Positions 5,786 through 49,762 of a DNA stretch of 64,000 bases are shown here, piece by piece (the stretch's first letter is position 1; each line of letters opens with the position of its first letter). Made by a program: the position numbers and the translations under genes. The notes under the pieces are model-generated. The model saw only the letters and a program-made list of their open reading frames with translations, had not been told where the DNA came from and ran no database searches. The stretch is from a bacterium (GTDB taxonomy: Bacteria > Bacillota_I > Bacilli_A > RF39 > UBA660), in NCBI GenBank assembly GCA_019423565.1, contig JAHZBE010000002.1, positions 18,563-82,562 of the forward strand, in the 5' to 3' direction.

Positions 5786-6304
5786 TTACTCATTAAATTT
5801 TTCTTCTTTTGTCATATCTTTTTTCCTCTCAACATTTTTATTATTTTTCTTTATCTCATTTACTTTTAACGATACAAATACAGATAATACTGTATTTTCT
5901 TTATTTGTTATACGATTATTTTCATCTAAATAAAATTTTTCTGGTAATTTTAATTCTTTAGCTGATTTAGATATATCAATTGATGTACAATTTTCATCTA
6001 ACTTTATATCCACATCAGGTTTTAATCTTTTTAAATCTTGTTCAAACTTACGTATTTCCTTCTCTGATAATATCATTTCATAAGCATTTGTTACTTCAGC
6101 AAGGTAGTTTTCCATACTTCTTTCTTCATAATTTTCTATCTCATCATTTAACCATTTAATTAAATTGTTTGTCGCATCATCATATTCAGAAACGTTTCTT
6201 AATAATTCCATTTGTAAATCAGTTAAATTAACATCTTTATTACCTTTAAAATATTTATTAGTTATTTCAAGTATTTTTTCCATATTTAATTTCTGATTTT
6301 CCAT
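5786..6304 (-). CDS. hypothetical protein
   Basis: 172 aa ORF; no recognised domain. Confidence 0.35.
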   Translation of the reverse strand: MENQKLNMEKILEITNKYFKGNKDVNLTDLQMELLRNVSEYDDATNNLIKWLNDEIENYEERSMENYLAEVTNAYEMILSEKEIRKFEQDLKRLKPDVDIKLDENCTSIDISKSAKELKLPEKFYLDENNRITNKENTVLSVFVSLKVNEIKKNNKNVERKKDMTKEEKFNE

Positions 6305-6457
6305 TTGAAATACCCCCTTTTCAAAAGACGGCCATTATATTAACATACAAGTACTTTTTTGCCAATTTTTTTGAAAAGATTGCAAATTCATAAAAATAAT
6401 AGTATAATTGTAGTCGTTAATCTTATTAACTTTGATTCTATAAAGAAAGGAGAAAAA

Positions 6458-31028: not shown

Positions 31029-31071
31029 TTTTTCAAAATAAAACTCCAATATAAATTGAAGATTTATTTTC
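31029..31071. repeat. 42-bp direct repeat, copy A (ttttcaaaataaaactccaatataaattgaagatttatttt)
   Basis: Near-identical (1 indel, 1 substitution) to the copy at 32806..32850; together they bracket a 3-gene cassette. Confidence 0.6.
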
Positions 31072-31146
31072 ATTAAATTTTAGGATGAATAACTTTTTAT
31101 TTTATAAAAGGTAACTTTTAATTTAGTTGTATACGCCGTATAAAAA

Positions 31147-31488
31147 TTACATTAATTCAATTCTTATTCCTAAAACACCATATTTTGTTTGTTTTTCTTT
31201 TGTATAAAACTCTTCAAGAACATCAATTAATTCGTCTTTAGTCATTGATTTATCAGATAAAACTGAAATATCAAAATCCTTAAACATATCTTCAAAAGAA
31301 TTATATCTTAACAAACCTACAACTTTTGCATTAAAAGATTCGTTTAATTCTGGTTCTTTTAAAAATTTGATAGTATCCCCAATCTTAATTTGTTGTCTTT
31401 TTTCATCAAAAAGTCTAATTTCAATTCTTTTTGTACCATTAAGTATAAAATTATAATACTCAGGCTGTAATTTCATTTCGTGTTCCAT
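31147..31488 (-). CDS. ASCH (PUA-like) domain protein
   Basis: 113 aa; N-terminal ...FILNGTKRIEIRLFDEKRQQIKIGDTIKF matches the ASCH beta-barrel core. Confidence 0.55.
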   Translation of the reverse strand: MEHEMKLQPEYYNFILNGTKRIEIRLFDEKRQQIKIGDTIKFLKEPELNESFNAKVVGLLRYNSFEDMFKDFDISVLSDKSMTKDELIDVLEEFYTKEKQTKYGVLGIRIELM

Positions 31489-31489
31489 A

Positions 31490-32029
31490 TTATTTTTTTC
31501 CTTTCATTTTTGCTCTTTGCAATATCATTTGTTTTGTTTTACTCGGATTATTACATATGTTTCCATCCAAGCTAAATGCTTCATCCCATTCCTTTATAAC
31601 ATCATATAATGGATCGTTTTCATAAATGAATTTTATATATTGTGGCATGTCTGCATTTTTTGATATACTACGCATATCTTTTAAGGATAAATATTCTTCA
31701 AATTCTGTTACATCATATAATTGTAATGCAAAACAATTTGGATTATTTTTACCATAGTATTCAACGATTTCATGACCATCACTTCTTTTGTCATATCCTG
31801 TTGCACTTAATATTTCATTAGTATTACCTTTTAAAATATCACCTACTTTAAAATATCCTATAATTGCTTTATCTTCTTTTGCAGAATACACATAAACTTT
31901 TTTATTAAGTAATTCATCTTTTAAAGGCGATTTTCTAAATTCATAAAGTTTGGTTTCATCAAATATTTGCCTAGCATAATAAGTCATTATTGAAATAATT
32001 GCAATTTTTTTTCTTTGACTTTTATCCAT
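31490..32029 (-). CDS. ASCH/PUA-like domain protein (second, longer)
   Basis: Start at ATG 32029 with GGAGGGG RBS; internal KVYVYSAKEDKAIIGYFKVGDI pattern resembles the ASCH/EVE-type fold; weak. Confidence 0.4.
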   Translation of the reverse strand: MDKSQRKKIAIISIMTYYARQIFDETKLYEFRKSPLKDELLNKKVYVYSAKEDKAIIGYFKVGDILKGNTNEILSATGYDKRSDGHEIVEYYGKNNPNCFALQLYDVTEFEEYLSLKDMRSISKNADMPQYIKFIYENDPLYDVIKEWDEAFSLDGNICNNPSKTKQMILQRAKMKGKK

Positions 32030-32121
32030 CTTATCCCCTCCTGATAAATAGATTATAACATAAATTGACAAATTTAGCAAAAAATGATATAGTATATCCT
32101 AATTTTGAGGAGGGGAACTAT

Positions 32122-32691
32122 ATGATAAAAATAGAAAGTTTAAAAGATTATTTGAAAACTATCAGTAATGAAGATTTTATAATGCTAGCAACAAAAATTT
32201 ATATGATTACAGATTTTATTTGCAAAGATTATCCCAAACATAAGGAATGGTATTTTACTAAACAACTACCTGCAATCGCCGGTGAAGAAAGAAATATTTT
32301 ATTTGTTAGAAATCCAGAAAATCAAGAAGAAATTATTTCAATGGCTTGTTTAAAGAAAGATGAGGAAGAACAAAAAATATGTACTTTATATGTTTCAGAT
32401 AAATGTAGAGGTCTGGGAATAGGAACAGCAATCGTTGAAGATTCAATGAAATGGTTAGGTACAACTAAACCACTTATAACATTAGCAGATTACAAATTAG
32501 AAATGTTTAAACCAATTATTAACAAATATGATTGGCAACTAACTGAAATAGTTTCTGGTTTATATAATGATAGATCACAAGAATTATGTTTTAACGGAAC
32601 TCTCACTAAAAATAATAATAATCTATTAGAACAACAATTACATCGTAGACTGGTAAAAGCACTAGAATATAGAAAAAATCAACTAAAATAG
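32122..32691 (+). CDS. GNAT family N-acetyltransferase
   Basis: Start at 32122 with GGAGGGG RBS; LYVSDKCRGLGIGTAIVED acetyl-CoA binding motif A. Confidence 0.6.
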   Translation: MIKIESLKDYLKTISNEDFIMLATKIYMITDFICKDYPKHKEWYFTKQLPAIAGEERNILFVRNPENQEEIISMACLKKDEEEQKICTLYVSDKCRGLGIGTAIVEDSMKWLGTTKPLITLADYKLEMFKPIINKYDWQLTEIVSGLYNDRSQELCFNGTLTKNNNNLLEQQLHRRLVKALEYRKNQLK

Positions 32692-32805
32692 TTTTATTTT
32701 TAAAATCACAATTAGTATCAAAAAAAATTAAATATAAAAAGTAGGTATTGAATTCAATACCTATTTTTTAATTTTCTCATTATTCTCATAAATTTTTATC
32801 AATAT

Positions 32806-35122: not shown

Positions 35123-35200
35123 ATACAAAATTTGGTGACCTGTATGGGATTCGAACCCATGAATGCTGCCGTGAGAGGGCAGTGTGTTAAGCCACTTCAC
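35123..35200 (-). tRNA. tRNA-Glu (anticodon CUC)
   Basis: Manual fold: 7-bp acceptor stem, T-arm ATGGG/TTCGAATC/CCCAT, anticodon stem CTGCC/GGCAG with loop CTCTCAC; encoded CCA; resembles E. coli tRNA-Glu except C34. Confidence 0.7.
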
Positions 35201-35275
35201 CAACAGGCCATGGCTGCCCAAGTTAGATTCGAACTAACGCATAATAGATTCAGAGTCTACCGCCTTACCACTTGG
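35201..35275 (-). tRNA. tRNA-Gln (anticodon CUG)
   Basis: Manual fold: acceptor TGCCCAA/TTGGGCA, D-arm GCCAAGTGGTAAGGC as in bacterial tRNA-Gln, anticodon loop CTCTGAA, encoded CCA; immediately abuts tRNA-Glu. Confidence 0.7.
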
Positions 35276-35340
35276 CTATTGGGCAATCCAATAATATTAT
35301 AACAAAAAAGTCTAGGTTTTTCTAGACCTTTTTATATATA

Positions 35341-35598
35341 TTAATTAATTCCGAGTCCTAATTTGATAAATAATATAAGTATTCCTATCAAACCTGTTAT
35401 TAAAGCTCCTACTGATGTCCTCCATAACCATTTATTTCTATCTTCAATTTTGTTAATAGTTTCTAAGTTTCTATTTGCTAAGTTGTATGCTTCATTTGAC
35501 TTTTCTTTTATAAGTTTGTAATCATCTATTTTACTTTCAATAACAGCGAGCCTAGTTAAAACTTCTAATTCAAATTTTTCTCCCATATGCATCACCAT
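35341..35598 (-). CDS. XhlA-like small membrane protein (phage hemolysin/holin-associated family), tentative
   Basis: About 80 aa, coiled-coil N-terminus and single C-terminal TM (ALITGLIGILILFI), the architecture of XhlA-family proteins. Confidence 0.35.
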   Translation of the reverse strand: MVMHMGEKFELEVLTRLAVIESKIDDYKLIKEKSNEAYNLANRNLETINKIEDRNKWLWRTSVGALITGLIGILILFIKLGLGIN

Positions 35599-35749: not shown

Positions 35750-37090
35750 TTATTTAAAATCAAACTCTTTATAAGCCTTATTTAGTAAATTTTGTCTCAT
35801 ATCTTTTAATAAACAATCTACAACTTCAAAAGATATCTCTCTTTGATTTTTATTTGTTGTATCAAATAAGTTAAAGTTTATGTTTTCTTCTTCAGATAAC
35901 TTTTTCATATTTAATAATGATTCATTATATTCATTTAAATTTGTCTCATTAAGAAATGATCTTTTTTCAAGTGATAAATTTGCATTGTAATCACGTTTTA
36001 ATGATGTTAGACTATCCGCATATGTTGAAATAACAATATCAATTTTATTTTTAATTAAAGGTATATATAACTTTTTATATTCACTATATTCATTTTCACT
36101 CATTCCATTTTTTAAATATAATCTATCAACCCAAATTAGTCTATCAAATAAAGATCTATCAATTATAATAATGTCTGGTTTTCTCTCAATTGATTCTTCT
36201 AATTGTTTTAATACATATTTTGAAATTTCTGTATTAACTACATTTTTATATTTGTTTTTTAAAGTTGGATATATTTCCTTTTTGTATTTTTCAGATGTAG
36301 TAAATTCTTCTAATACCTCTACTACAAAACCTTTCTTTTTGAAAAAATCTTTTAAATTATTAATTAAACTTGTTTTACCTGTTCTTGGTGTTCCAGTAAA
36401 TTCAATAACATATGGAGAATTATCAGATAAAACTTTTTTTAGTTTGTATACTTCTTCTTTTCTATAATGTATTTTTCTTAATTTATTATATTCTTCTATA
36501 TTATCCTTAAATATAATATTTTTTACATATTCATCGTTATCTTTATTATTAAAGATTTCATCTATTAACGCTTTTAATCTTATGAACATAGGATTATTTT
36601 CATCTTCATTAAATATTAAACTATTATAAACTTCAGTATAGTACCATTTTTGAGATTCATATCCTCTTTTAAATGCTGAAAAATCATATTTTCCCTTAAT
36701 TTCAAATAATATTTTTAAATCTTCAAGATTACTAATTTTATCCGCACATATTACTGCTTTATGTCTTAAATCTAATTTTTTAGTTTCTTCTATTGTATGT
36801 TTTTTTCTTTCTTCCCAAGATAAACTTTTATCTGGTTCACTCGCACCATATACTAATGAAGCAATATCATCATTAAAATTATCTTTTATATCTTCTATTT
36901 CATATGATGTATCTTCTACAACATCATGTAAATACCCTGCGGATACAACGTTTTCATCAAATACATATTGTTTTAATATTTGTCCAACATTTATTGGATG
37001 TATTATCATTGGTTTTTCTTTATCACTTTTTCTTACCTGACCTTTATGCGCTTTTATCGCAAATTCTTTTGCTTTTAATTCTATATTCAT
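35750..37090 (-). CDS. fusion protein: N-terminal RelA/SpoT-type HD hydrolase domain (small alarmone hydrolase-like) plus C-terminal P-loop deoxynucleoside/nucleotide-kinase-like domain
   Basis: Residues 1-150: HKGQVRKSDKEKPMIIHPINVGQIL...GYLHDVVEDT...ICADKISNL match the (p)ppGpp hydrolase HD signature. Residues about 225-400: Walker A GTPRTGKTS and IIIDRSLFDRLIWVDRLY (dNK-like DRS/ERS region). Confidence 0.6.
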   Translation of the reverse strand: MNIELKAKEFAIKAHKGQVRKSDKEKPMIIHPINVGQILKQYVFDENVVSAGYLHDVVEDTSYEIEDIKDNFNDDIASLVYGASEPDKSLSWEERKKHTIEETKKLDLRHKAVICADKISNLEDLKILFEIKGKYDFSAFKRGYESQKWYYTEVYNSLIFNEDENNPMFIRLKALIDEIFNNKDNDEYVKNIIFKDNIEEYNKLRKIHYRKEEVYKLKKVLSDNSPYVIEFTGTPRTGKTSLINNLKDFFKKKGFVVEVLEEFTTSEKYKKEIYPTLKNKYKNVVNTEISKYVLKQLEESIERKPDIIIIDRSLFDRLIWVDRLYLKNGMSENEYSEYKKLYIPLIKNKIDIVISTYADSLTSLKRDYNANLSLEKRSFLNETNLNEYNESLLNMKKLSEEENINFNLFDTTNKNQREISFEVVDCLLKDMRQNLLNKAYKEFDFK

Positions 37091-37230
37091 AACTCCTCCA
37101 TTTATAATAAACTAGAAAATTTATCATATTTAATATTGTAATCAACTATAAGAATTATAACATATTTATGTACTATTTTGAATAGTTTACATCACATCTA
37201 AACCTGGTGATGGGCACTGTGTAGTTTTTA

Positions 37231-37845
37231 CTATAAATATTTATTTATATCATTTATATATAATTTTAAAATATCATATTGCTTTATATTTTTATTCTTA
37301 TATCCTAATTCTTTTCTAATTGCTAAAATTAAAGTTTCAATCTTTGGTGCTTCATTTGATAAATAATATTTTGTGGATTCTACTTTAGTTAGACCTTTTT
37401 TATTTGTCTCGCTATTCATAACAGATATTTTAAAGTCGGACCAAGCTTTCAATACGTTGTCAGATGCATAAATTGTCATATATTTTTGTTGTTCTCTCAA
37501 TTCTTCTGTTATATTTTTATTATTTGTAATTTCGGCATAAAGAACATTTTTTATTAACCAATCTAAAAATTCAATATATATCTTTTGTCTTTCTTCTCTA
37601 ATTTGATTTTTAATATTATATCTGTTTTCAAAATATTTGCCTACCGGTACTGAAACAAACGCTAATAATCCAGTAATCAATGCTACCGAAATCGTTGGAT
37701 ATTTATCAAATACATATTTAATAGCTTTTATTAATAATTGTCCTATTTTTATAGAAATATAAACAGCAAATATTAGTAATGCCATTTCCAAAATGAAGTA
37801 TAATATATCGCGTTTAAAATTAAAAATTTTTTTATTACTATTCAT
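37231..37845 (-). CDS. hypothetical membrane protein (2 N-terminal TM plus cytoplasmic domain)
   Basis: 204 aa; 15 nt downstream of the Bro-N gene (likely co-transcribed). Confidence 0.4.
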   Translation of the reverse strand: MNSNKKIFNFKRDILYFILEMALLIFAVYISIKIGQLLIKAIKYVFDKYPTISVALITGLLAFVSVPVGKYFENRYNIKNQIREERQKIYIEFLDWLIKNVLYAEITNNKNITEELREQQKYMTIYASDNVLKAWSDFKISVMNSETNKKGLTKVESTKYYLSNEAPKIETLILAIRKELGYKNKNIKQYDILKLYINDINKYL

Positions 37846-37859
37846 AATTTTCTCCTACT

Positions 37860-38714
37860 TTATTTTGATGTTTCTAGTTGTTCTTCTTTCTTATATTCAT
37901 AATTTAATCTATTTTGTTTATTAACAACAGATTCTCCTAAATTTCTTTCTATATCTTCTCTTGCTACTTTTGCTGCATGTCCTCCCATTCTAGCAACCTC
38001 TTTATTTTGTTCTAAGCCTTGCGGTTTATGTTTTTCTGCTAATCTTTTTGTAGTTTCTTCTGATAAATCAGCCAATATTATTTCAATGTTATCCATATTA
38101 TCTCTTAAAGACTCTTTACGAAGACCTTTATATTGTTTATATTCTTTAGCTGTCATACCAGACCATTCTTTATAGATTTCATTAGTTAGTATAGCATATT
38201 CTTTACCTTCAGTTATACCATTCTCTTGCCAAATATCAGTTAATTCTTTTCTATCTTGAATTCCTTTTAATCTTTTTGTAATCCATTTTTCATCATAGCC
38301 TTTAGCACGATATATATCTATAGCTCTTTGAGCTGAAAGTGATGGGTCAAATACTTCGTCAATTCTTTCACTTCCTAATTTAGCTAACCACCCTTTTATT
38401 GATTCAGCATTTTTACTAGGAATAGATTCAATTATTCTAAACATGCCCTCAATATCAACTACATCAGTATTATAATATTTACCATCTGAAGACTTTAATT
38501 TCAGTTGGTTACAATTTGTAACCGACTCATTTCCTTCTTTTTTTAATCTATGTTTTAACACTTTCCAATAATTTCTAGGATTATCACTTTCTGATAAAAC
38601 TCCTACTATATCAACAACACTAATATAATATTTTTCATCTTCTTTATCCCATACGGTTCTTATTGTTTCATTATTAAAAATTTTATTAATTAAATGCATT
38701 TTATCCTGATTCAT
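37860..38714 (-). CDS. Bro-N domain protein, DinD (DNA-damage-inducible protein D)-like
   Basis: N-terminal ...IRTVWDKEDEKYYISVVDIVGVLSESDNPRNYWKVLKHRL fits the Bro-N consensus; 284 aa matches DinD-type proteins. Confidence 0.5.
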   Translation of the reverse strand: MNQDKMHLINKIFNNETIRTVWDKEDEKYYISVVDIVGVLSESDNPRNYWKVLKHRLKKEGNESVTNCNQLKLKSSDGKYYNTDVVDIEGMFRIIESIPSKNAESIKGWLAKLGSERIDEVFDPSLSAQRAIDIYRAKGYDEKWITKRLKGIQDRKELTDIWQENGITEGKEYAILTNEIYKEWSGMTAKEYKQYKGLRKESLRDNMDNIEIILADLSEETTKRLAEKHKPQGLEQNKEVARMGGHAAKVAREDIERNLGESVVNKQNRLNYEYKKEEQLETSK

Positions 38715-38766
38715 TTATAAACCTCCTATTTCATTTTCAGATAATTCTTTTTCTTTTAATTTTTCA

Positions 38767-39393
38767 TTACTCATACATCATACCTACATAATCCATAACC
38801 ACTTCTTTTATACCTAATTTTTCTGCATACAAAGATAATCTGACAAGATCTTTATCCTTCCTTTTTATATACTCTCGTACACTATGTTTAATAAGTTCTA
38901 AATCCATTCTATTTTTAGATCTAATAATATCACATATACATCTTTCGACATCATATGCTTTCACTTTATTACCCATAGGTGTTTCAATTTCAATAAGACC
39001 AAGTTTGTAAATATCATTATCAACATAAAACACATTATGTTTCCTTAAGTGCACACTACTATAACTTCTTTTTACAGTTATATCATACACTCCATTTGGA
39101 GCCTTTGTAGATAAACCATGAAAATACAAAGCCGTCATATGAGAAAATATTACATTAGGCATACTTAAACCAAAAACATAATAATTATCTATAACTTTAT
39201 TAAAATCAATATAAATACCTGACGCAACTTTTTCTATAATACCTTTTTCTTGCATGATTGAAAGATACATTCTGTGTATGCCAAACATATCAAGTTCTTT
39301 TGAAGTAATATATCCATTATTTTTTTTCATAAGTTCTTCAATAATTTCGATATTACTTTTATCCTGAAACCCTTCTATAGTTAATTTTTCCAT
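38767..39393 (-). CDS. AbiEi-like (type IV TA antitoxin family) transcriptional regulator domain protein, tentative
   Basis: Start at ATG 39393 with AAGAGG RBS (track ORF extended to 39513); ITSKELDMFGI winged-helix-like N-terminus and VFGLSMPNVIFSHMTALYFHGLS core reminiscent of AbiEi/COG5340 proteins. Confidence 0.4.
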   Translation of the reverse strand: MEKLTIEGFQDKSNIEIIEELMKKNNGYITSKELDMFGIHRMYLSIMQEKGIIEKVASGIYIDFNKVIDNYYVFGLSMPNVIFSHMTALYFHGLSTKAPNGVYDITVKRSYSSVHLRKHNVFYVDNDIYKLGLIEIETPMGNKVKAYDVERCICDIIRSKNRMDLELIKHSVREYIKRKDKDLVRLSLYAEKLGIKEVVMDYVGMMYE

Positions 39394-39733
39394 ATAGTAC
39401 CTCTTTGACTTTTCTACTGAAATTATATCATGTTCAGTAGTTTTGTCAACCTTTTTCCTGAATTCAGGGAAATGGTCACTTACTTTGTTATTACTAGTTT
39501 CACAAGCAATCATCGCACGTTTTATAACTTTATGAAATTTTCACATTTATTATATTCTAGTAAAGACATTAATTTTCTTGATTCCAAAAACTCATTTCCA
39601 TATTCATCAATATGTTTTATACCTTCAAAAATTTTTCAATATATTCTTCTATATACCAAAATTAAAAAAGCAATATTAATCCATCAAATTAATACTGCTC
39701 ATCATTTAAACTTTAACATAAATTATTCAATAT

Positions 39734-40141
39734 TTATTTTTTAAACCACATATACATTCCTTCTTCAGCAACTTCTTTTTTTACTTTAAAGCCAAATTTT
39801 TCATAAAATCCAACTTTACCATTTGCTGCCAAAAGTTGTATCATCATTTCTTCGCCATCTTCAAGTGTATCTTTTACTCTATCTAATAGATTATTAATCA
39901 TTTTTTTACCAATATGTTTGCCTTGATATTCTGGTTTTACAATAACATCTGATACAAGTACCATATAACCATTATCTGTTACTAATCTTGCCATACCTAC
40001 AATATTACCATCTTGAATATATTTAACTGTCATACTATTTTTTAAACTTTTTTCTAACAATCTCTTTGACGGACATTTCCAACCTACGGAATTAATCATT
40101 TCTAAATATTCTTCATATGTTAAATTATTTTCTTCTATCAT
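39734..40141 (-). CDS. GNAT family N-acetyltransferase
   Basis: 135 aa; VKPEYQGKHIGKKMINNLL motif A, GNAT fold length. Confidence 0.75.
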   Translation of the reverse strand: MIEENNLTYEEYLEMINSVGWKCPSKRLLEKSLKNSMTVKYIQDGNIVGMARLVTDNGYMVLVSDVIVKPEYQGKHIGKKMINNLLDRVKDTLEDGEEMMIQLLAANGKVGFYEKFGFKVKKEVAEEGMYMWFKK

Positions 40142-40335
40142 ATAAACACCTCATTACACACTATTTAACTTATCTATTCTACTAGTCAATAAAGTACAAT
40201 CATCTTCAACTTATAATTATTATAACATATTCTTTTTTATTTTATGATTTTAAAAATTTAAAAAGATCAACCATTAAAGTTGATCTTAACAATATAGTTA
40301 CATTATTTTAAAAAGTATACAATAAATTTTTTCTC

Positions 40336-42159
40336 CTAACCAACGGTATGAATATTGCTTTTAAAAGTTGATTCATATTCCCAATTAATTAAATCAAAAG
40401 ATTTAAGTTTAACTTTTGTTGTGGCAGAATCACCTTGACTTAACGTTATAATATATTGATTACCTTTCTTTTCAATTAGATCAATATTACTAATATAATA
40501 AATGTTATTTGGTATTTGATTTTTGTATTCAACTTTTTCCCATTTTGTTCCTTTATCTTTTGTTATATACATGTATGGAAACTCATTCTGTTCATTATTA
40601 TATAATAAAACAATTCCATTATTTTCATCATACATTATAAAATCTTCTAATGTCTTCCTTGAACCATTTTCTGGCAACTCAATAGATTCCCAATCATTAC
40701 CACTATTTGTCGTTAAATATGCCTTTTTAAATTCCCCACTGCCCATTGTCCAATCAGAACCTAATGCAACATATCCAAAGTTTTGATTAGTAAATCCAAC
40801 TACCCTATGAGGTATATCTTTGTATATATCTTTATTTACAATATCAAAACTTTTTTCTTTCCAATTCAAACCATTATCTGTAGATATTTTTAATTTTGGA
40901 TCTTCTCCATAAAAATATGCAATAGGAACAAGTTCATTAGTTGAAATAAACCAACTACCATTTGGAAAAGAAATGTCTCTGTAAAAATTTAAAGTATCTT
41001 TTACTTCACTTGGTGAAATATCCGTTTTAATCCAATTATTACCATAATTTCTAGTAAATAATAATTCATTATTCGTATTTATAAAATAATCTGTTTCCAT
41101 ATTATATCCACTTTTTTTTATATCACCATCTACATTATCAAATACGTACTTGTAAACTTCATCAGCAATTATACTGCTGCCATCGCTAAGTGTAATAATT
41201 GAATAAATGCCTGGATTTACTTTTCCACCCTTACCCGATTTATAATCAATAAAAGATAGTGCCTTTACCTCTTTATTATCCCTCATATCAATAACACTTG
41301 TTTCATCAAAAAACTGATTATTTGGATAAATTGATACTTCATAATTTTTTAAGTTACTCATTTTTATTTGTTTTCTTAAAGGTATTTTTTTAATCTGATT
41401 ACTTATATATCTAATATTTAAACTCTTTGAATATTCATCGACTAAATGTTTATTAATTTCACAATCATTCTTATCTTTACAATTATCCACACTTTTATAG
41501 CCAAATTCTAAATTTTTATTTTCGTACCTATAATATCCATAACCAACATAATCATAGTTATCATCAAAGAAATTTATTGTAATTCCGAATTTCTTGATAT
41601 TTCCTTTTTTAGTTAATTGAATACTATAATCATTAATATTTGAATTATATTTTTTTATATCATTTGTTTTAGATATAATTTTTAACAACTCATCTAATCC
41701 TTTTTTTTCTAAATTGGATACTCCAAAAAATCCTATTTCATAATGATTATTACCCTCTTTTATATTTGATGGATGATAATATATGTACCTTATTAAAAAA
41801 GTCAAAAATATAATTACTATAATAGAAACTATCATAATAGATAATTTTCTTATTTTATTTATTAATTCTTTTTTTCTTTGAATTTGATTTTGCTCTATTT
41901 TTTCGATTGTTTTGTCTATTTCTTTCTGGATATCAATTTTTTTATTTTTTCCTCTTTCGCCACATAATATTTCAGATACATCAGCATCTAATATTAAAGC
42001 TAACTTTTGTAAAATTGTTATATCTGGAAAACTAAGTCCCCTTTCCCATTTGCTCACTGCTTTATCAGTTACAAATAACTTATCTCCCAATTGTTGTTGA
42101 GTTAAACCTTTTTCTTTTCTAAGGGATGCTATAAATTTTCCAACCTTGTTATTATCCAT
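40336..42159 (-). CDS. XRE-family HTH regulator fused to a TM helix and extracytoplasmic BNR/Asp-box beta-propeller domain
   Basis: N-terminal LRKEKGLTQQQLGDKLFVTDKAVSKWERG (HTH_3); TM at about 100-125; C-terminal repeated S/T-x-D/N-x-G-x-x-W boxes (RNYGNNWIKT, TDNGLNWKEK, TNSGNDWESI, TKDKGTKWEKV). Confidence 0.6.
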   Translation of the reverse strand: MDNNKVGKFIASLRKEKGLTQQQLGDKLFVTDKAVSKWERGLSFPDITILQKLALILDADVSEILCGERGKNKKIDIQKEIDKTIEKIEQNQIQRKKELINKIRKLSIMIVSIIVIIFLTFLIRYIYYHPSNIKEGNNHYEIGFFGVSNLEKKGLDELLKIISKTNDIKKYNSNINDYSIQLTKKGNIKKFGITINFFDDNYDYVGYGYYRYENKNLEFGYKSVDNCKDKNDCEINKHLVDEYSKSLNIRYISNQIKKIPLRKQIKMSNLKNYEVSIYPNNQFFDETSVIDMRDNKEVKALSFIDYKSGKGGKVNPGIYSIITLSDGSSIIADEVYKYVFDNVDGDIKKSGYNMETDYFINTNNELLFTRNYGNNWIKTDISPSEVKDTLNFYRDISFPNGSWFISTNELVPIAYFYGEDPKLKISTDNGLNWKEKSFDIVNKDIYKDIPHRVVGFTNQNFGYVALGSDWTMGSGEFKKAYLTTNSGNDWESIELPENGSRKTLEDFIMYDENNGIVLLYNNEQNEFPYMYITKDKGTKWEKVEYKNQIPNNIYYISNIDLIEKKGNQYIITLSQGDSATTKVKLKSFDLINWEYESTFKSNIHTVG

Positions 42160-42355
42160 TACTTCTCACCTCAAAAACATTATACTATAAAAAAAACAAA
42201 TTTAATATCGACCAATAGTTTAGATAATAAATTTGTGATTTTTTAAACTTATCATGCAAATAATTTATGACTTTAAATTATAAATTTTGACAAAAAATTT
42301 ATTAAAAACTATTCGTAGCAGCAATAATATATTGTCATAAATTTTTATTAATATT

Positions 42356-44977
42356 TTAAATACTAATTTTATTTTTAATAATATTAATATCATCATTATT
42401 TCTAGTGACAAAATTTCCTACAATTTTATTCATACATTCAGGTGTCCAATATATTTTTAATTTTTCTTTTGCTCTTGTAATCGCAGTATAAAAGATGTTA
42501 TGACTTATAACATCACCTACTTCATCATTTATAACAATTTTAACTGATTTATATTCTAAACCCTGTGATTTATGAATTGAGGTTGCATAGGCAATAATAA
42601 ATGGTACTACACTATCCTTTTTATCCTCAACATCATCATCATAATTAGCATTAACACTAAAACAAATAATCGTTGATTTATCACTTCTTTCAATTATTTC
42701 TAATCCAACATATTGTGCATCGACATCAGAAATGAAAATATCCACACTTATTTCAAATGTTATTTTTTCTTCTGTTTTAGTTATTCCTGTTATCACACCC
42801 TTTAAATTATTGTATAAAACAGGATAGAATCTATTTAAATCATTAAACAAAATAGGATCATCTACTTTATAAGAATTTATTCCCCACTCATATCCGATAT
42901 TATTGTTATCTGATTGCAAATATCTATTAATGCTATTAATTCCATATGGTCCATCATAATTTAAACATAATATAATTTCATCTTTATCGTCCTTTTCAAA
43001 TATCTTTTCGTTTAAATTATATGACATATCATTATCTGCTAAATATTCAATTATATCATTATCAATATTTCTAACTTTTTGCCATAAATCTAATAAAACA
43101 GGATTTTTAGTTCTAAATGTTCCATCTAATTCTTTTATACAATTACCTGGTAACAAATCCTTGGCAAGCCTAAACCAATTACCAAATTTAATAGATTCTA
43201 TTTGATAAACATCACCCACTAACAATAATAAATTATAATTTTCGTTAGTACTTAACAATATATTCATATCATAATTATCTACAGTACTACACTCATCTAT
43301 AATTAATAGATCACATAGTTGTGGATTTCTTTTATACTTATCAATTGTCAAAAATTCAAAATTTTTATTATCAAGTCCTATCCTTCTTTTTAAATTTTCA
43401 ACTGCAGGATTCGTCTTTGCTAAAAATACAATTTTTCTGTATTCAAAAATACTAGAAATTATTTTAATAGTTTCCGTTTTTCCACATCCAGCAGAACCAT
43501 AAATTAAAGCAACTTTTGTATCCACAAACAATTCTTTACATATATCATATTTTTTTGAATCTGAAAATTCGTAATCTGTTAACATTTCCCAATCAGCGAA
43601 CATATTACTATAATCATCATATCCAAATTTTGTAAATTCATTTAATTTTTGCAAAATTGATATAGTTTCCTGTTCATAACCATTTATATATATATACTTA
43701 TCACTCTTAATAATTTTTCGACCTTCATGTCTAGGTAAATATAATTTTGAATTAAAAACATCTATTAGGTTATCCATATATTCTGACTCCAAATCAATAT
43801 CACTTATTTTTGTATATATTTTCCAAAAACTATCAGAGTTATAACTAAGTCTCCTAGAAAATAACTCATGTTCTCTACCATTACTCTCAATGCATTGTAA
43901 TAAATCACTTATATCAACTTTATGATTTGATAAAGACGATGCGTATGGCATTTCATCAAAAGGAATAGAACTCCAATTCAAATATAAATTAGACAACTTA
44001 TAATTTTCACTAGACATCAGTTGTGATTTTATGACAATATTGTTAAGAGTAAATAACATATACTTCAAAATATTAGCACTGGGCTTATTTTTTAAAATTA
44101 TATTTCTTGAAAGATTAAGCAAATTTAAAATGTAATTAGTTTTTGCACCTTTTATCATTTTCTCGCTAAATATGTTATATTGATTATCATTAAATTCAAC
44201 TATATCTAATAGGTTAAAATTATTACTCATTAAATATTTCATTAACAAATCATACTCTCCATATCTTGAAGAAATTTTATATTCTAATCCAAATATTTTA
44301 GCATAATTATTAAACTCACATGGTCTAATAGCAATCTTATAATTATCTATAATTTTAATATTTATTTTTTTACCAAACAAATTTATAGTTCTATCAACGC
44401 TAGAAATTTTAATAGCATAATTATCCATAATTTTAATTCTACTGTAAACAATTATTCTATTAAATTTATTTATATAATCTGTCGCATCAGATAGGGTAAC
44501 TTCATAAAATACATTTTTATTAATAATTATCGGTTTTACTTTTTTTACATAATATTGATTAGCTATTACACCTTTGTTTATATTAAAAGGAACTTTTTTC
44601 ACATGATTACAAATTTGAAAATAATAATTTTCCATGTTTTTCTCGATATTTAAAGGAAATGAATATAAGTTTTCCAAAATATCCATATTATACTTAATTT
44701 TCATAAATTTTTTTAGTTCAATTAAATAATTAAGATATTTTATTAATACTCTTGAAGAACCATCACCATTTGGTAGAGTATGCGATGTTGATATCTGCAA
44801 AAATCCATGCAAAGCTCTTAATTCTCTCATATTAGCACAACTTTTCATATATTTAACTGATAGTTTATTATTTTCGTGATTAAATTTTACATATCCTTTT
44901 ATTTTATCAGTAATATATACTCTAAAAAAACAATACTCAACTAAATATCTAAGATTACTTAATACATTTTTAGACAA
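42356..44977 (-). CDS. SF1 RecD/Pif1-like DNA helicase with about 480-aa N-terminal domain of unknown function
   Basis: C-terminal half: Walker A GSAGCGKTET, LLIIDECS (motif II), LLLVGDVYQ, YATSIHKSQGLEYKSV (motif VI-like); the N-terminal half has no recognisable motif. Confidence 0.65.
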   Translation of the reverse strand: MSKNVLSNLRYLVEYCFFRVYITDKIKGYVKFNHENNKLSVKYMKSCANMRELRALHGFLQISTSHTLPNGDGSSRVLIKYLNYLIELKKFMKIKYNMDILENLYSFPLNIEKNMENYYFQICNHVKKVPFNINKGVIANQYYVKKVKPIIINKNVFYEVTLSDATDYINKFNRIIVYSRIKIMDNYAIKISSVDRTINLFGKKINIKIIDNYKIAIRPCEFNNYAKIFGLEYKISSRYGEYDLLMKYLMSNNFNLLDIVEFNDNQYNIFSEKMIKGAKTNYILNLLNLSRNIILKNKPSANILKYMLFTLNNIVIKSQLMSSENYKLSNLYLNWSSIPFDEMPYASSLSNHKVDISDLLQCIESNGREHELFSRRLSYNSDSFWKIYTKISDIDLESEYMDNLIDVFNSKLYLPRHEGRKIIKSDKYIYINGYEQETISILQKLNEFTKFGYDDYSNMFADWEMLTDYEFSDSKKYDICKELFVDTKVALIYGSAGCGKTETIKIISSIFEYRKIVFLAKTNPAVENLKRRIGLDNKNFEFLTIDKYKRNPQLCDLLIIDECSTVDNYDMNILLSTNENYNLLLLVGDVYQIESIKFGNWFRLAKDLLPGNCIKELDGTFRTKNPVLLDLWQKVRNIDNDIIEYLADNDMSYNLNEKIFEKDDKDEIILCLNYDGPYGINSINRYLQSDNNNIGYEWGINSYKVDDPILFNDLNRFYPVLYNNLKGVITGITKTEEKITFEISVDIFISDVDAQYVGLEIIERSDKSTIICFSVNANYDDDVEDKKDSVVPFIIAYATSIHKSQGLEYKSVKIVINDEVGDVISHNIFYTAITRAKEKLKIYWTPECMNKIVGNFVTRNNDDINIIKNKISI

Positions 44978-45339
44978 ATAATCTCTATCATCTAAATTTT
45001 CTTCTATTATTCTATTTATAACATTATTTATATCATATATTTTAGAATCTATATAATTTAAAGCTTCATAACTTCCTTTTACAACTAGTACTAAATTTGT
45101 ATACTATTTTACCATAAATTTTTATTTTCTTACTAATCCAATAAGAAAATTTTCGATATTTCAAAAAAATATAATTTTTAAATCACCAATTATGGAATAA
45201 AAATTTCTTTAAAATTATACAATTATTAACAAATTCTAATTATATAATATAACTATTTTTTTGATAAAATTTAAATATTTCATTGCATAAAAAGAGTATT
45301 GATATAATTTCAATACTCTAATATAGTTAACATTTTTTA

Positions 45340-45918
45340 TTAGTTTTTAAAACCTAATCCATTAAAGAATTTAAGGTTCCCATCTTTACCAAAAGATGCA
45401 GTTACATTGCTGCTTCCATCTTCTGCTACCCAAACATATTTATTCCAAGAACTAACTTCAATAAGAGTTCCATCAACACCACCAACGGCTTTTTTAAATT
45501 CATCATAGCTAATTCCATCATTAATTCTTGCTTTTATGTCTGATAAGTTATCAAGTGTTACTTTTTTATTTTTTAATTCTTTTTTATCATATTCACTTTT
45601 TATAGATACTATTTTATCATTTGAAAATGAAACAGTAATTTTTTTATCATTACCAAAGTCATATTCATACTTATCAAGTGAAGTACTTTCAAGTTTAGTA
45701 GCTTCAAATCCTACTATACCATTTAATTCTTCTAATGTATTATCTAAAGACATCTTTGTTAAACATTCATAATATGAACATTTTGATTTTACAGTTTGTT
45801 CTGTACCACTTTTTACATTATCATTTTTTACATTTGTGTTTTCTTTTGTATTTGCACACCCTACAGTACAAATTAATACAAATAAACATGTTAACCCTAT
45901 TAAAATTTTATTTTTCAT
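45340..45918 (-). CDS. hypothetical lipoprotein
   Basis: Signal peptide with lipobox-like LICTVGC; 192 aa. Confidence 0.5.
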   Translation of the reverse strand: MKNKILIGLTCLFVLICTVGCANTKENTNVKNDNVKSGTEQTVKSKCSYYECLTKMSLDNTLEELNGIVGFEATKLESTSLDKYEYDFGNDKKITVSFSNDKIVSIKSEYDKKELKNKKVTLDNLSDIKARINDGISYDEFKKAVGGVDGTLIEVSSWNKYVWVAEDGSSNVTASFGKDGNLKFFNGLGFKN

Positions 45919-46092
45919 TTTTTCTCCTCCTAATTCAATTATAACCTATAATACATTAATTGTATACATATTTTAATATAAAAATTACACAGATATTTTA
46001 TATTAAATTATTTATCAAAAAAACTAGAGAATAATCTCTAGAATCACATATAAAACAGATGTAATATTTAACATGCACCAAATTTATTCTTT

Positions 46093-47835
46093 TTAATAAG
46101 AAAGATTACAAACTTTTTCTTTATTACTCATACACAAATTGTAATAATAACCTTGTTTTTTTATAAGTTCTTTATGTGTTCCAATTTCTACAATTTTTTT
46201 ATCTTCTATAAATACAATCAAATCAGCATTTTTAATAGTATTTAATCTATGTGCTATTACAAATGATATCTTATTCTCTAATATTTCCTTTGTAGCATTC
46301 ATTATATATTGTTCAAATTCCAAATCTAAATTTGATGTAACTTCATCAAGAATTACTATATCACCTTTTTTTAATATAGCTCTTGCAAAACTTAACAATT
46401 GTTTTTCACCATAAGATAATAAATCTGTTTCTGCAGTTATTATTGTATCGTATTTATTTTCAAATTGTTCTATTTTTTTATGGATACCAATTCTTTTACA
46501 AAGAGAAACAATATCTTGAAAAGTAACATTATCATTTCCATACATTAGATTTTCTTTTATAGACATGTTTAATATAACGGGTTCTTGAAAAACATATGAT
46601 ATATTTTTCCTAAGTTCACTAAGTTTATAATTTGTATAATCAATACCATTTATTAAGATTTTTCCATTCGTTAACTTATAGAATCTTGGTATTAAATTTA
46701 CAAAAGATGTTTTACCTGCACCGCTTTTTCCAACAATTGCAATTGTTTTAGGTTTATCTACTTTTAAATTAATATTATCCAATATTAAATTTTCTCCATC
46801 ATAACTTAATGACACATCTTTAAATTCTATTGAATCTATTTTGTTTAATTCTAATACTCCTTCATCAACTTCTTTTTCAATATTAACTATGTCTAATACA
46901 TTTAAAAATGCAATATACTTATTCAAAGCCCCATGCATATGATCCAAAACTCCATGCATATTACCATTAATATCATTTATATAATCCATCATTAAAATTA
47001 TTGTAGACCCACCACAAATTCCTATTAAAATTTTATTTCCACCAATCAACAATGTGATTATTGTAGAAAAAAACGATAATAAACTAAATAATGCAGTATG
47101 TAATCCTGAAATTTTACTTGTTTTAATAAAATCACTTTTTGATTTTTCTAATAATTTTTTTATATCATCTATATTTGTTTCCTCAAGTCTTAAAGTTTTT
47201 GTAGTTGAAAAACTATCAATATATTCATTAACCTTTTCTTGAAGATTAATTATAGTTTTTTGTAATTTTCTATATGTTTTCATGCTTTTATTATAAAAAG
47301 GTATTAACATTAAATATGATATTACAAATATAACTAAAACACTAAGAGCAATTTGCCAATCTAAAAAGAACATTATAATAAGTGTAACTATTATACTCTT
47401 TATTCTATATGCAAACAATCCTAAGAAATTCCATATGAATAATCGTGCAGATTCAAAACTTTGTGTAACAGTTAAACTAAATAATTTCCCTACCTGCATC
47501 TTATCAAGTACACTTATATCGCCATTCTGAATAGTACTAAAAATTTTGCTTTTTATTTGTTTATCATTATCAAAACATATAATACTTCTTTGCTTTTCTA
47601 AATATAAACTACCAAGAAAAATTCTAATCCATATGTATAAGATATATATAGAAGAAATTATAATTACCATTTTTACATTTTTATTTGGAATAAAATTGTC
47701 AATTGAGCTTGATAACACAAACTGATACACAAAAACAGGAGCAATTTGAAGCACTTCAAATATTGCTCTTTTAATAGTAGGTTTTTTATTTGTAGTGAAA
47801 TTAAGCATTTCTTTTAATTTTTGTTTATTAAACAT
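46093..47835 (-). CDS. ABC transporter ATP-binding/permease protein (exporter half-transporter)
   Basis: 6-TM domain plus NBD with Walker A GKSGAGKTS, signature LSYGEKQ, Walker B ILDE. Confidence 0.85.
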   Translation of the reverse strand: MFNKQKLKEMLNFTTNKKPTIKRAIFEVLQIAPVFVYQFVLSSSIDNFIPNKNVKMVIIISSIYILYIWIRIFLGSLYLEKQRSIICFDNDKQIKSKIFSTIQNGDISVLDKMQVGKLFSLTVTQSFESARLFIWNFLGLFAYRIKSIIVTLIIMFFLDWQIALSVLVIFVISYLMLIPFYNKSMKTYRKLQKTIINLQEKVNEYIDSFSTTKTLRLEETNIDDIKKLLEKSKSDFIKTSKISGLHTALFSLLSFFSTIITLLIGGNKILIGICGGSTIILMMDYINDINGNMHGVLDHMHGALNKYIAFLNVLDIVNIEKEVDEGVLELNKIDSIEFKDVSLSYDGENLILDNINLKVDKPKTIAIVGKSGAGKTSFVNLIPRFYKLTNGKILINGIDYTNYKLSELRKNISYVFQEPVILNMSIKENLMYGNDNVTFQDIVSLCKRIGIHKKIEQFENKYDTIITAETDLLSYGEKQLLSFARAILKKGDIVILDEVTSNLDLEFEQYIMNATKEILENKISFVIAHRLNTIKNADLIVFIEDKKIVEIGTHKELIKKQGYYYNLCMSNKEKVCNLSY

Positions 47836-47836
47836 A

Positions 47837-49606
47837 TTATTCTCCTATTTTATCTAAATTAATTTCGTATATTTTTCTATAATTTTCATTTTTTAGTAAT
47901 TCATCATGTGTTCCACATATCACTTTACCATTATTTATATAGATAATTTTTTCAAATTTTGGTGCCAATTCTATTTCATGTGAAATAAATATTTTACTAG
48001 AATCATCTTCTAATGTTAATAAATTTTCTAATATTTTTCGTTTATTTATTCTGTCTATTGCACTAAAAGAATCATCAAATATCATTATAGGTTTTGGTTT
48101 TGTATATGCTCTTACTAAAATTAATCGCTGTCTTTGTCCTTTTGATAAGGAAACCCCATTTTTACCTATTTGACTATCATATCCATCATTAAGTTTTTGA
48201 ACGTCTTTGTGGAATGAAAAAAAGTTTGATAATTCAATTATTTCTGGCATAGAAATACTTGGCATTAATATCTTTATATTCTCTGCAATTGTTCTTGAAA
48301 ATAAATAAGAATCTTGAAGTAAAAGGCACATATTTTCTCTAATAATTTTTTTATTTAAATCTTTTATCTCATAATTTCCAATTTTTATACTTCCATCATA
48401 TTCATAAAAACCAATTAAAGTTTTTAATAATATTGTTTTACCACTACCCGTACTACCAACAACCATAACCTTTTCACCTGGATTAATTACAAAATTTAGA
48501 TTACTCAATAAAATCTTTCCATTTATTTTTATATTAGCATTTTTAAATGTTATTGTAGTATCTCTAATTTCAATATTTTCATCACTTTTCTCATCTTCTA
48601 ATGTCAAATTTAATAGATTATTAAGTCTCTTGCAAGAAACAATACATAGATTAAAAACTTCTAATATTTCTGATAAATCAGTAAAAGATCTCGTTATTTT
48701 ATTTGCATAATTTATTGTTACATATATGCTTCCTATAGTTATAAAATTATTAACATACAAGATACTACTAATTATGAATATTACTGGAGTTTGAGTTTTT
48801 ACAACACTACTTGTTGATGCTTTATAAAAACTATCCAATACAATTTTTCTTTTATTCGCATCTAGATTATTATTATTTACTTTTTCAAATTTCTCTATTT
48901 CTTTTTCCTGTAAATTATTAATTTTCATAAATTTGATATTAGAATAATTATCATTTAATTTTGAATATAATTCTTTTTGTACCTTCATTTTATTTTCAAT
49001 TATTGGTTTTGATTTTATGTAATACCAAATAGACAATAAAATTATTATTAATATTGATACAAACATTACTAGCGATAGTCTTATATCTAAACTTGCTAAT
49101 TGGGCTATTGCAAATATAATTATTAAAGTTAAATCAAGTATATATGTAAGTTGTTTTTCTATAACATTGACTATATTGGCAACATCATCTGTTGAATTTT
49201 GAACTAATTCAGCAAGTGACTTTTTATAAAAATCTTGATATGTTAAATTTTGTATGTGATTAAATAATTTTAATTTTAATTCAAATTGAAATTCTTGAAT
49301 TATTTTATTTTTTGTAACATTTCTTACATATGTAAATAATATAATTACCCCTTTTATAAGTAAAACAAAAATACACATTATTGGTATAAATGATAATTTA
49401 CCATTAAATAAACTAATAAACAATTCTATAATATCATTATTTGTATTTTGTTTTAATAACACATCAATAAAATATTGTATAACAACAGGTATATATGTTA
49501 CTAAATAATTCAATGCAATACTCAACAAAAAAAACACTAATATTAATAACTTAGTATGTTTAAAACTTGATACAATAGCTTTCAATAACTTCATAAACTT
49601 CTCCAC
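47837..49606 (-). CDS. ABC transporter ATP-binding/permease protein (exporter half-transporter, partner)
   Basis: TMD plus NBD (GSTGSGKT, LSKGQRQR, IFDDSFSAID); 1-nt gap to partner gene. Confidence 0.85.
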   Translation of the reverse strand: MEKFMKLLKAIVSSFKHTKLLILVFFLLSIALNYLVTYIPVVIQYFIDVLLKQNTNNDIIELFISLFNGKLSFIPIMCIFVLLIKGVIILFTYVRNVTKNKIIQEFQFELKLKLFNHIQNLTYQDFYKKSLAELVQNSTDDVANIVNVIEKQLTYILDLTLIIIFAIAQLASLDIRLSLVMFVSILIIILLSIWYYIKSKPIIENKMKVQKELYSKLNDNYSNIKFMKINNLQEKEIEKFEKVNNNNLDANKRKIVLDSFYKASTSSVVKTQTPVIFIISSILYVNNFITIGSIYVTINYANKITRSFTDLSEILEVFNLCIVSCKRLNNLLNLTLEDEKSDENIEIRDTTITFKNANIKINGKILLSNLNFVINPGEKVMVVGSTGSGKTILLKTLIGFYEYDGSIKIGNYEIKDLNKKIIRENMCLLLQDSYLFSRTIAENIKILMPSISMPEIIELSNFFSFHKDVQKLNDGYDSQIGKNGVSLSKGQRQRLILVRAYTKPKPIMIFDDSFSAIDRINKRKILENLLTLEDDSSKIFISHEIELAPKFEKIIYINNGKVICGTHDELLKNENYRKIYEINLDKIGE

Positions 49607-49688
49607 ATTTTTATTTTTTTAAACAAAAGACCTGATACTTTCGTAGCAAGTCTATCTTAACGAACATATTGGTTCGACTAAATCTAAA

Positions 49689-49762
49689 TGGCAGGGGATG
49701 AGAGAATCGAACTCCCAACAAAAGTTTTGGAGACTCCTATTATACCATTTAACTAATCCCCT
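49689..49762 (-). tRNA. tRNA-Trp (anticodon CCA)
   Basis: Manual fold: acceptor AGGGGAT/ATCCCCT, anticodon arm GGAGT-CTCCAAA-ACTTT, T-arm GGGAGTTCGATTCTCTC, encoded CCA; close to B. subtilis tRNA-Trp. Confidence 0.75.

Follow-up and report, generated by a model that had tools for sequence, protein, structure and literature searches.

Alarmone metabolism is thought to rest on the RSH enzymes, which are either long proteins, with a hydrolase domain joined to a nucleotidyltransferase-fold synthetase, or single-domain proteins. One of the latter, the metazoan SpoT homologue Mesh1, doubles as an NADPH phosphatase. The physiology of RF39, a lineage that is abundant in the guts of humans and animals but uncultured and has small genomes, is known from genomes alone. 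Among the small alarmone hydrolases (SAHs), Lmo0812, C. glutamicum RelH and the Leptospira SAH belong to the MixSpo (RelH) type (PMC10434055), and the known members of this type (RelH, 7QOC and 7QOD; Leptospira levettii SAH, 7QOE; Lmo0812, 4YF1) have a single domain and ~180–200 amino acids. SAHs are also associated with phages and prophages (10.1101/575399).

Here we describe a protein, encoded in a 64,000-nucleotide stretch of RF39 DNA (the whole of which we call the window), in which a predicted hydrolase domain of the RelH/MixSpo type is joined to a putative P-loop kinase. Like RSHs of the long form (Rel, RelA and SpoT), it carries a homologous hydrolase domain and a second predicted nucleotide-handling catalytic domain; unlike them, it has neither a nucleotidyltransferase-fold synthetase nor TGS/ACT, the partner domain being a P-loop kinase. 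Compared with the RelH/MixSpo SAHs, it has the same type of hydrolase plus an additional kinase module of ~250 amino acids, so that it is not 'small', and its clade is confined to uncultured gut Bacilli, while compared with single-domain Mesh1 it has two domains. RSH surveys, SAH papers and full-text searches of the literature yielded no description of a kinase-fused SAH, most subscription journals lying outside the scope of this search, and in this respect the preliminary description of the locus, which held the hydrolase-plus-kinase architecture to be undescribed, was borne out. It had also called the fusion previously unseen; the architecture is uncharacterised but not unseen, being abundant in databases under the label 'HD domain-containing protein', and we rate it as not categorically new and as of interest to the alarmone and gut-microbiome fields.

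Domain layout and occurrence of the fusion protein

The fusion gene is a 446-amino acid open reading frame plus stop on the minus strand of the window (35750–37090), which begins with ATG and is complete as judged from the sequence and from relatives with the same architecture. On the same strand, a ribosome-binding site, GGAGG (37095–37099), lies 5 nt 5′ of the ATG, and further upstream is a promoter-like site (TTCAAA-17-TATAAT with a TG upstream, as in an extended −10; 37154–37182), which is a consensus match only. Both sites fall within the upstream stretch that is conserved with conspecific genomes. The protein consists of three main parts, a predicted SAH (RSH HD) domain of the RelH/MixSpo type (residues 1–185; 36536–37090), a helical linker with the N-terminal helix of the kinase module (residues 186–225; 36416–36535), in which the model places helices at 187–193 and 198–220, and finally a P-loop kinase core with a predicted thymidylate kinase (TMPK)/deoxynucleoside kinase (dNK) fold (residues 226–446; 35753–36415), all on the minus strand. 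The AlphaFold single-chain model of the protein has a pLDDT of 93.1 and a pTM of 0.90, the latter value suggesting that the two domains may form a fixed assembly.

More than 1,600 database proteins match the fusion; the best 120 of these are all of about the same length and nearly all carry HD_4 and AAA_28 annotations together. The matches go solely by the name 'HD domain-containing protein [Bacilli bacterium]'. When 1.84 billion cluster representatives were searched, 115 clusters fell below 1e-30 and full-length fusions were recovered at identities as low as ~30%, and a scan of one genome per species located relatives in at least 138 species, nearly all of them uncultured Bacilli/Tenericutes gut MAGs. 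The best species matches are 'uncultured Tenericutes UMGS855' (99%) and Clostridium sp. CAG:433 (98%), CAG-433 being a GTDB family within the order RF39 (PMC8035907). Below these, identity declines without a break to ~53% in gut MAGs that carry the labels Bacilli, Tenericutes, Mollicutes or Erysipelotrichaceae, a 99%–53% series that comprises 80 retained species loci out of the 138 found and that we read as vertical descent. The known members all come from uncultured organisms and bear only generic names.

Against eight orthologues, dN/dS is 0.07–0.39 for the hydrolase half and 0.13–0.24 for the kinase half, and both halves are under purifying selection. A sequencing or assembly chimera is ruled out by the >1,600 proteins, the 138 species genomes, the purifying selection in both halves and the confident single-chain model, which bears out the earlier view that the gene is a genuine fusion and not two genes joined by error. 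Together, the comparisons in this and the following two sections show a genuine, conserved two-domain protein with predicted hydrolase and kinase sites, of RelH and TMPK/dNK type respectively, that are both intact.

The N-terminal half resembles RelH-type alarmone hydrolases

The translation contains AHKGQVRKSDKEKPMIIHP (residues 14–32), LHDVVEDT (residues 54–61; 36908–36931, minus strand), which supplies the HD metal-binding pair His55 and Asp56 and the ED catalytic pair Glu59 and Asp60, and ADKISNL (residues 116–122). Residues 7–126 match Pfam HD_4 (PF13328; E=5.4e-17; 62.4 bits, cut-off 27.2), while NCBIfam spoT_relA (TIGR00691) reaches 80.2 bits where its cut-off is 499.2 and is covered only at positions 2–126 of 687. 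Pfam gave no match in the protein to the RelA_SpoT synthetase or to the TGS/ACT region. In the PDB, the best relative of this half is Listeria Lmo0812 (4YF1; E=4.6e-39), and the alignment, over residues 6–180, takes in the whole of the 187-amino acid Lmo0812; it is followed by Drosophila and human Mesh1 and then by the hydrolase domains of Rel enzymes. The catalytic and metal-binding residues of HD1–HD6 (Arg20, His31, His55-Asp56, Glu59-Asp60, Asp117 and Asn121) are all present, line up with those of Lmo0812 and Mesh1 and are invariant or nearly so among 34 homologues. In particular, His55, Asp56 and Glu59 are invariant and Asp60 is found in at least 90% of these 34 family members, and the LHDVVEDT segment is identical in Drosophila Mesh1 in the HMMER alignment. 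The fold is that of the solved SAHs, with the MixSpo members nearest.

Thus, by homology, the N-terminal half is predicted to be a bona fide RSH-type alarmone hydrolase domain of the RelH/MixSpo type. The preliminary description had correctly recognised this domain, giving it ~150 residues where we place it at ~185. By analogy with its relatives, the HD domain would remove the 3′-pyrophosphate from (pp)pGpp, and possibly from (p)ppApp, in a Mn2+-dependent manner. Its substrate need not be an alarmone, however, because Mesh1-type domains can act on NADPH as well.

The C-terminal half resembles thymidylate and deoxynucleoside kinases

The C-terminal half contains GTPRTGKTS (residues 233–241), of which GTPRTGKT (233–240; 36371–36394, minus strand) forms the Walker A or P-loop motif with an arginine at its fourth position, and DRSLFDRLIWVDRLY (residues 311–325). 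The latter begins with DRSLFDR (residues 311–317; 36140–36160, minus strand), which the sequence and the alignment with 8PUU suggest to be the counterpart of the ERS/DRY motif of dNKs and TMPKs. Conservation and the same alignment point to a lid segment with Arg366-Asp367 and Arg377 (LKRDYNANLSLEKR; 35960–35995, minus strand). Among profile libraries, this half passes the threshold of Pfam AAA_28 (4e-8; 34.1 bits, cut-off 27), a catch-all model for the NadR ribosylnicotinamide-kinase-like P-loop group, with other generic P-loop matches remaining below threshold, and residues 226–353 match PHROG 2107 'thymidylate kinase' at 4e-8. Pfam and NCBIfam scans of the window protein returned no match to Thymidylate_kin (PF02223/TIGR00041). 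Across 20 kinase-intact homologues, Pfam found AAA_28 in 19, Thymidylate_kin weakly in 8 (best E=1.4e-3) and the tRNA-kinase-like KTI12 weakly in 13, and no match to dNK or PPK2; neither a PPK2 profile match nor a PPK2-type Walker A was seen in the kinase half of the window protein. A homology search with the C-terminal half alone retrieved the same close family again and added little.

When the profile built from these 20 homologues (A3) was compared with the PDB, the best match was 8PUU (E=5e-9), the Giardia deoxyadenosine kinase (PMC11662666), and the remaining dNKs and the TMPKs followed at 1e-3 to 1e-2. The match to 8PUU takes in the P-loop, the Glu that follows strand 2, the DRS/ERS motif and the first part of the lid; DRSLFDR is aligned to 'QDRSIYED' and Arg366 to the region of the lid arginine. 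The three approaches thus differ in their nearest relative, with TMPKs best in the fold search, a dNK best by sequence profile and AAA_28 alone in Pfam, and the kinase half combines a TMPK fold with a P-loop, a DR(Y) motif and a lid. It shares only 14–20% identity with TMPKs (S. tokodaii 2PLR and S. aureus 4DWJ) and non-TK1 dNKs (8PUU, human dGK 2OCP and Mycoplasma dAK 2JAS), from which it also differs in falling below the Pfam Thymidylate_kin and dNK thresholds, in having an extra N-terminal helix and in being fused to a hydrolase. By these comparisons the kinase domain appears to fall in no curated kinase family.

Fifteen positions are invariant or nearly so in the kinase-intact members: Gly233, Arg236, Gly238, Lys239, Thr240, Glu262, Tyr269, Asp311, Arg312, Asp316 and Arg317 (the last four from DRSLFDR), Trp320, Arg366, Asp367 and Arg377. 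Gly233, Gly238, Lys239, Thr240 and Arg366 are fully invariant and Arg236, Asp367 and Arg377 nearly so. Within the protein's own clade (34 sequences, to 70% identity), Gly233, Lys239, Thr240, Glu262, Asp311, Arg312, Asp316, Arg317, Arg366 and Arg377 are invariant. The conserved positions correspond to what is predicted to be the full nucleoside/nucleotide-kinase catalytic set. The C-terminal half is thus a putative separate P-loop kinase of the TMPK/dNK class, with a candidate acceptor-site Glu/Tyr. A separate P-loop kinase with Walker A and DRS motifs had been anticipated in the preliminary description, and the AAA_28 and PHROG matches agree with it; the module is larger than the ~200 residues then proposed, at ~250 with its conserved N-terminal helix. 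By analogy with TMPKs and dNKs, it would phosphorylate a (deoxy)nucleoside or a nucleoside monophosphate at the 5′ position, with the γ-phosphate of ATP as the group transferred.

Hydrolase residues outlast kinase residues in the wider family

Relatives of the two domains also occur in other arrangements. The kinase module is found alone, behind a leader of ~90 amino acids (P0252, P0254 and P0286), and these kinase-only homologues share the 'HYRKEE..KL' helix and retain the catalytic kinase residues. It is also fused to another, YedJ-like HD domain (P0217/P0297) and forms part of a triple HD+SAH+kinase protein (P0138), arrangements which suggest that its linkage with nucleotide phosphohydrolases is recurrent. 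At its start, the P0217/P0297 gene shares 8 bp with the end of ftsH. SAH relatives stand alone in P0188 and P0186, whose contigs stop too soon to reveal any kinase gene downstream, and in P0229 the RelH-type domain is fused to an inositol-monophosphatase-family (CysQ-like) domain.

Among representatives clustered at 50% identity, the hydrolase residues (pattern RHHDEDDN, ED motif included) are retained in nearly all, while the kinase residues are intact in ~8 clusters, the window's included, and degenerate in ~20. P0145 has the reverse pattern, with the kinase kept and the ED pair lost, and in three clusters both are lost. Because the hydrolase is constant and the kinase often decays to a pseudo-kinase in the wider family, the core function would lie with the hydrolase, and the kinase would be an accessory, one that we infer to be still catalytic in the window's clade. 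That either domain can decay to a pseudo-enzyme is a likeness to RelA and SpoT, and the decay across the fusion family appears to be reciprocal domain decay of the same kind.

The frequent loss of catalytic residues elsewhere in the family suggests that the kinase domain can serve a non-catalytic role. It might be mainly a sensor or scaffold that binds ATP, GTP or dNTP and switches the alarmone hydrolase, with phosphotransfer absent or incidental, and would then play the part that falls to the pseudo-hydrolase in RelA or to the weak synthetase in SpoT. The ~20 of ~30 diverged full-length representatives that lost Walker A, DRS or lid residues, yet retained the domain and intact HD residues, speak for such regulation, and the fixed two-domain assembly suggested by the pTM is consistent with it. 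However, the catalytic kinase residues are invariant in the 34 sequences of the protein's own clade and persist in the kinase-only homologues, the kinase half matches the hydrolase half in its low dN/dS, and P0145 keeps the kinase without the ED pair, which speaks for an independent activity of the kinase. We consider a mainly regulatory kinase-like domain fairly unlikely.

The gene lies on the conserved side of a strain-variable island

The window is ordinary chromosome, with genes for RNase J, PNPase, SpoIVA, EngA, an NrnA-like DHH protein and acetate kinase, and with a uniform G+C content of 21–27%. The neighbours of the fusion gene include AbiEi (PADLOC, 9e-58), a Bro-N/PDC-S13 protein (PADLOC, 2.8e-114), an SF1 helicase and, just downstream, tRNA-Gln and tRNA-Glu (35133–35285); tRNA-Trp lies at 49689–49762. 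In the conspecific genomes L006 and L007, nucleotide homology of 97.5–98.7% sets in at window position 37211–37223, ~125 bp 5′ of the fusion start codon, and continues downstream across an XhlA-like ORF, the tRNAs, PAP2 and an AI-2E transporter; beyond the breakpoint, on the upstream side, the window and these two genomes have no sequence in common. In L008, a sister species in which the ORF is ~95% identical at the nucleotide level, the tRNA-Trp region is ~1 kb upstream of the gene, compared with 12.4 kb in the window. From this breakpoint and spacing, the genes for a 204-amino acid membrane protein, Bro-N/PDC-S13, AbiEi, a GNAT protein, an HTH protein and the SF1 helicase, which sit between tRNA-Trp and the fusion gene, are therefore strain-variable DNA, and the fusion gene is part of the conserved flank, or backbone, rather than of the variable island. 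The same interval also holds ABC transporter genes. The preliminary description had placed the gene in a tRNA-adjacent island with defence-like neighbours; the tRNAs and the neighbours are there, but the gene is on the conserved side of the breakpoint.

To survey neighbourhoods more widely, ORFs were called and clustered in 85 related loci plus the window, the fusion gene being present in 84. No conserved partner was found among these 84 loci. The commonest neighbour cluster, an HTH_11-WYL regulator, occurs in 14 of them, followed by a LysM/Amidase_3 protein (12), an ABC ATPase (10) and a small Cys/His-rich protein (8). Ham1/RdgB, NUDIX and UDG-superfamily neighbours occur in three loci each and give a weak hint of a nucleotide-housecleaning neighbourhood. 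Neighbour cluster c44, considered as a 5′(3′)-deoxyribonucleotidase, was dropped when Pfam did not confirm it. Regular-expression searches of the window and the 85 loci for canonical TMPK P-loops and for the RSH synthetase 'EIQIRT' gave no match, the ~13 kb per genome being too little to inform. Variable DNA recurs on the upstream side of the gene in several species, with Hachiman (HamA plus helicase), a type IIG RM system plus AAA_15, or a recombinase. Among the 2.9 million viral contigs of IMG/VR, one carries the full fusion; there a prophage end (tail, DGR reverse transcriptase and endolysin) abuts the gene, which is on the host side and is followed by host genes. The BFVD viral structures include no protein spanning both domains, and the fusion as a phage gene is rejected on these two grounds. 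From the variable upstream flanks and this lone host-side copy, we conclude that the gene tends to adjoin integration hot spots and is not itself mobile.

These data bear on a role in defence or counter-defence, in which the protein would be an antitoxin-like or immunity enzyme against toxic alarmones or toxSAS-made tRNA 3′-pyrophosphate, or a nucleotide-depleting or nucleotide-modifying effector of an anti-phage system of the island. Its appeal lies in the AbiEi and Bro-N/PDC-S13 genes that the fusion gene abuts in the window, in the Hachiman or RM/AAA_15 genes a few kb upstream at related loci, in the prophage end on the IMG/VR contig and in the report that SAHs are universal toxSAS antidotes (bioRxiv 10.1101/575399); the domain is of the same kind as that of the toxSAS–SAH pairs and phage-encoded SAHs. 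Unlike those, however, the fusion gene has no adjacent SAS gene or conserved partner and is not phage-borne: no RelA_SpoT synthetase domain was found among the window neighbours scanned, PADLOC has no match for the protein, and the family extends over at least 138 species in unrelated neighbourhoods, with an identity series that we read as vertical. The island boundary, moreover, lies upstream of the promoter-like site, and the defence genes are strain-specific whereas the fusion gene is not. We reject an island-borne defence gene because of the synteny breakpoints and the lack of a conserved partner. The proposal of a phage-defence or antitoxin role thus found no support, the neighbourhood survey that had been suggested as a check having turned up no cluster in more than 14 of the 84 loci, and we regard any such role as improbable.

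Discussion

The explanation that we prefer, at about even confidence, is that the protein is a chromosomal, lineage-typical housekeeping nucleotide enzyme of RF39-type gut Bacilli with two activities. On one chain, a hydrolase and a kinase could form a futile pair unless they act at different positions or on different substrates. The most likely coupling of the two domains would be a 'hydrolyse and recharge' unit, in which the breakdown products of alarmones (GMP/GDP from pGpp/ppGpp) would be phosphorylated on the same protein, with salvaged (deoxy)nucleosides or NMPs as alternative kinase substrates. Alarmone clearance would thereby be linked to the refilling of nucleotide pools in genomes that are small and depend on salvage. 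As in Rel/SpoT, each domain may also control the other, and expression would be from the gene's own promoter-like site on the conserved genome backbone.

Of the rivals, the sensor or pseudo-kinase is the likeliest, followed by defence or antitoxin and then by a PNKP-like enzyme; defence is the one most clearly disfavoured by the data. A more far-reaching possibility, to which we assign a very low probability, is a new messenger-nucleotide switch, in which a phosphorylated nucleotide would serve as a signal, produced by the TMPK-like kinase and destroyed by the RelH-type domain, as a functional analogue of bifunctional Rel/SpoT with a P-loop kinase in place of the nucleotidyltransferase-fold synthetase. 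The chemistry could, for example, be the addition of a phosphate to a 3′-phosphorylated guanosine or adenosine nucleotide, or the extension of a 5′-polyphosphate. Least probable of all is an end-healing or salvage enzyme analogous to a PNKP, with the HD domain removing 3′-(pyro)phosphate from the ends of RNA/tRNA or from 3′-NMP/pNp and the kinase acting on 5′-OH in mono- or polynucleotides, a pairing of 5′-kinase and 3′-phosphoesterase that follows the logic of T4 PNK/Pnkp and fits the weak KTI12 matches and the P0229 fusion, which points to 3′-phosphorylated nucleotides as a theme, but for which we found neither a closest similarity of the kinase to polynucleotide kinases nor a ligase or Hen1 partner.

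What the fusion means depends on which of these readings holds. If the protein amounts to no more than a salvage kinase to which a housekeeping hydrolase is tethered, the result is a routine gain in annotation, from 'HD domain-containing protein' to 'RelH-type alarmone hydrolase / TMPK-like kinase'. A messenger switch, if true, would be a new signalling design in a major human gut lineage that is uncultured. The conserved hydrolase–kinase fusion is a third architecture beside the long and the single-domain RSHs, and the reciprocal decay of either domain offers a natural series for the origins of pseudo-enzymes in RSH-like proteins. If both predicted activities are real, exit from the stringent state would be directly coupled to nucleotide re-phosphorylation or salvage, and the protein would provide a testable handle on how gut bacteria with reduced genomes manage their nucleotide pools.

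Gene content flanking the fusion gene and its orthologues

The ~12.4-kb interval (window 37223-49689) between tRNA-Trp (window 49689-49762) and the fusion gene is strain-variable over much of its length. It encodes an 873-aa SF1 helicase, a 607-aa HTH protein, a GNAT, a Bro-N protein matching the PADLOC candidate PDC-S13 (2.8e-114), a homologue of AbiEi (9e-58), two ABC exporter genes and a 204-aa membrane protein without a family match. No integrase was seen in this interval and no AbiEii toxin gene adjoins the AbiEi homologue in the window. Window 31070-32805 is an insertion of ~1.7 kb relative to the two conspecific genomes, L006 and L007, and contains three small ORFs (window 31147-31488, 31490-32080 and 32065-32691); the second, the only one of the three that was scanned, has no Pfam match.

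Mobile and defence genes are also found beside orthologues of the fusion gene. In the IMG/VR contig L086 (IMGVR_UViG_3300008512_000079, positions 1-7200) a prophage end lies directly upstream of the orthologue and carries a tail protein, a tail-fibre assembly protein, a LysM endolysin and a reverse transcriptase of the diversity-generating-retroelement type (PHROG 1423, 9e-110). The defence content upstream of orthologues differs between species: locus L002 (765-6544) harbors a Hachiman-like HamA, a DEAD/ResIII helicase and a serine recombinase, and locus L004 (1067-6602) a type IIG restriction-modification fusion and an AAA_15/AAA_21 ATPase. Because these upstream defence genes vary, the data suggest that an integration hot spot recurs near the fusion-gene locus.

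On its other side, the fusion gene is separated from a tRNA-Gln/tRNA-Glu pair by an 85-aa XhlA/holin-like ORF (window 35341-35598, minus strand; Pfam XhlA 2e-13, PHROG holin 8e-17), and no further lysis genes adjoin this ORF in the window. It is kept in L007 and in the sister species (L008), while in L006 the DNA aligns at this position, yet no ORF of at least 70 aa was called.

A linked regulator and further domain fusions

In 14 of 84 loci (L022, L024, L026, L027, L030, L031, L033, L035, L048, L063, L067, L069, L074 and L080) a 205-aa HTH_11-WYL regulator is encoded on the same strand as the fusion gene and upstream of it, no more than four genes away and directly adjoining it in 10 of the 14. 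This protein could be the transcriptional regulator of the fusion gene in that sub-clade.

Homology searches with the fusion protein also returned further fusions of the RelH-type hydrolase or the kinase module, which are unreported. Among the cluster representatives, P0138 combines a YedJ-like HD domain, HD_4 and the kinase; P0217, the first 8 bp of which are shared with the end of ftsH, joins a YedJ-like HD domain to the kinase; P0229 consists of an inositol-monophosphatase-family domain and HD_4, and P0167 of HD_4 and a partial ABC ATPase.

Possible sporulation-associated genes

Although the genome type bears the label 'uncultured Tenericutes'/RF39, the window encodes a full-length SpoIVA (window 11710-13188, minus strand), in which each of the three SpoIVA Pfam domains is matched (E down to 2e-107). 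A small Cys/His-rich protein without a Pfam match, which may be CotD-like, is a repeated neighbour of the fusion gene in eight related loci. Together, SpoIVA and this possibly CotD-like neighbour hint at a sporulating lifestyle.
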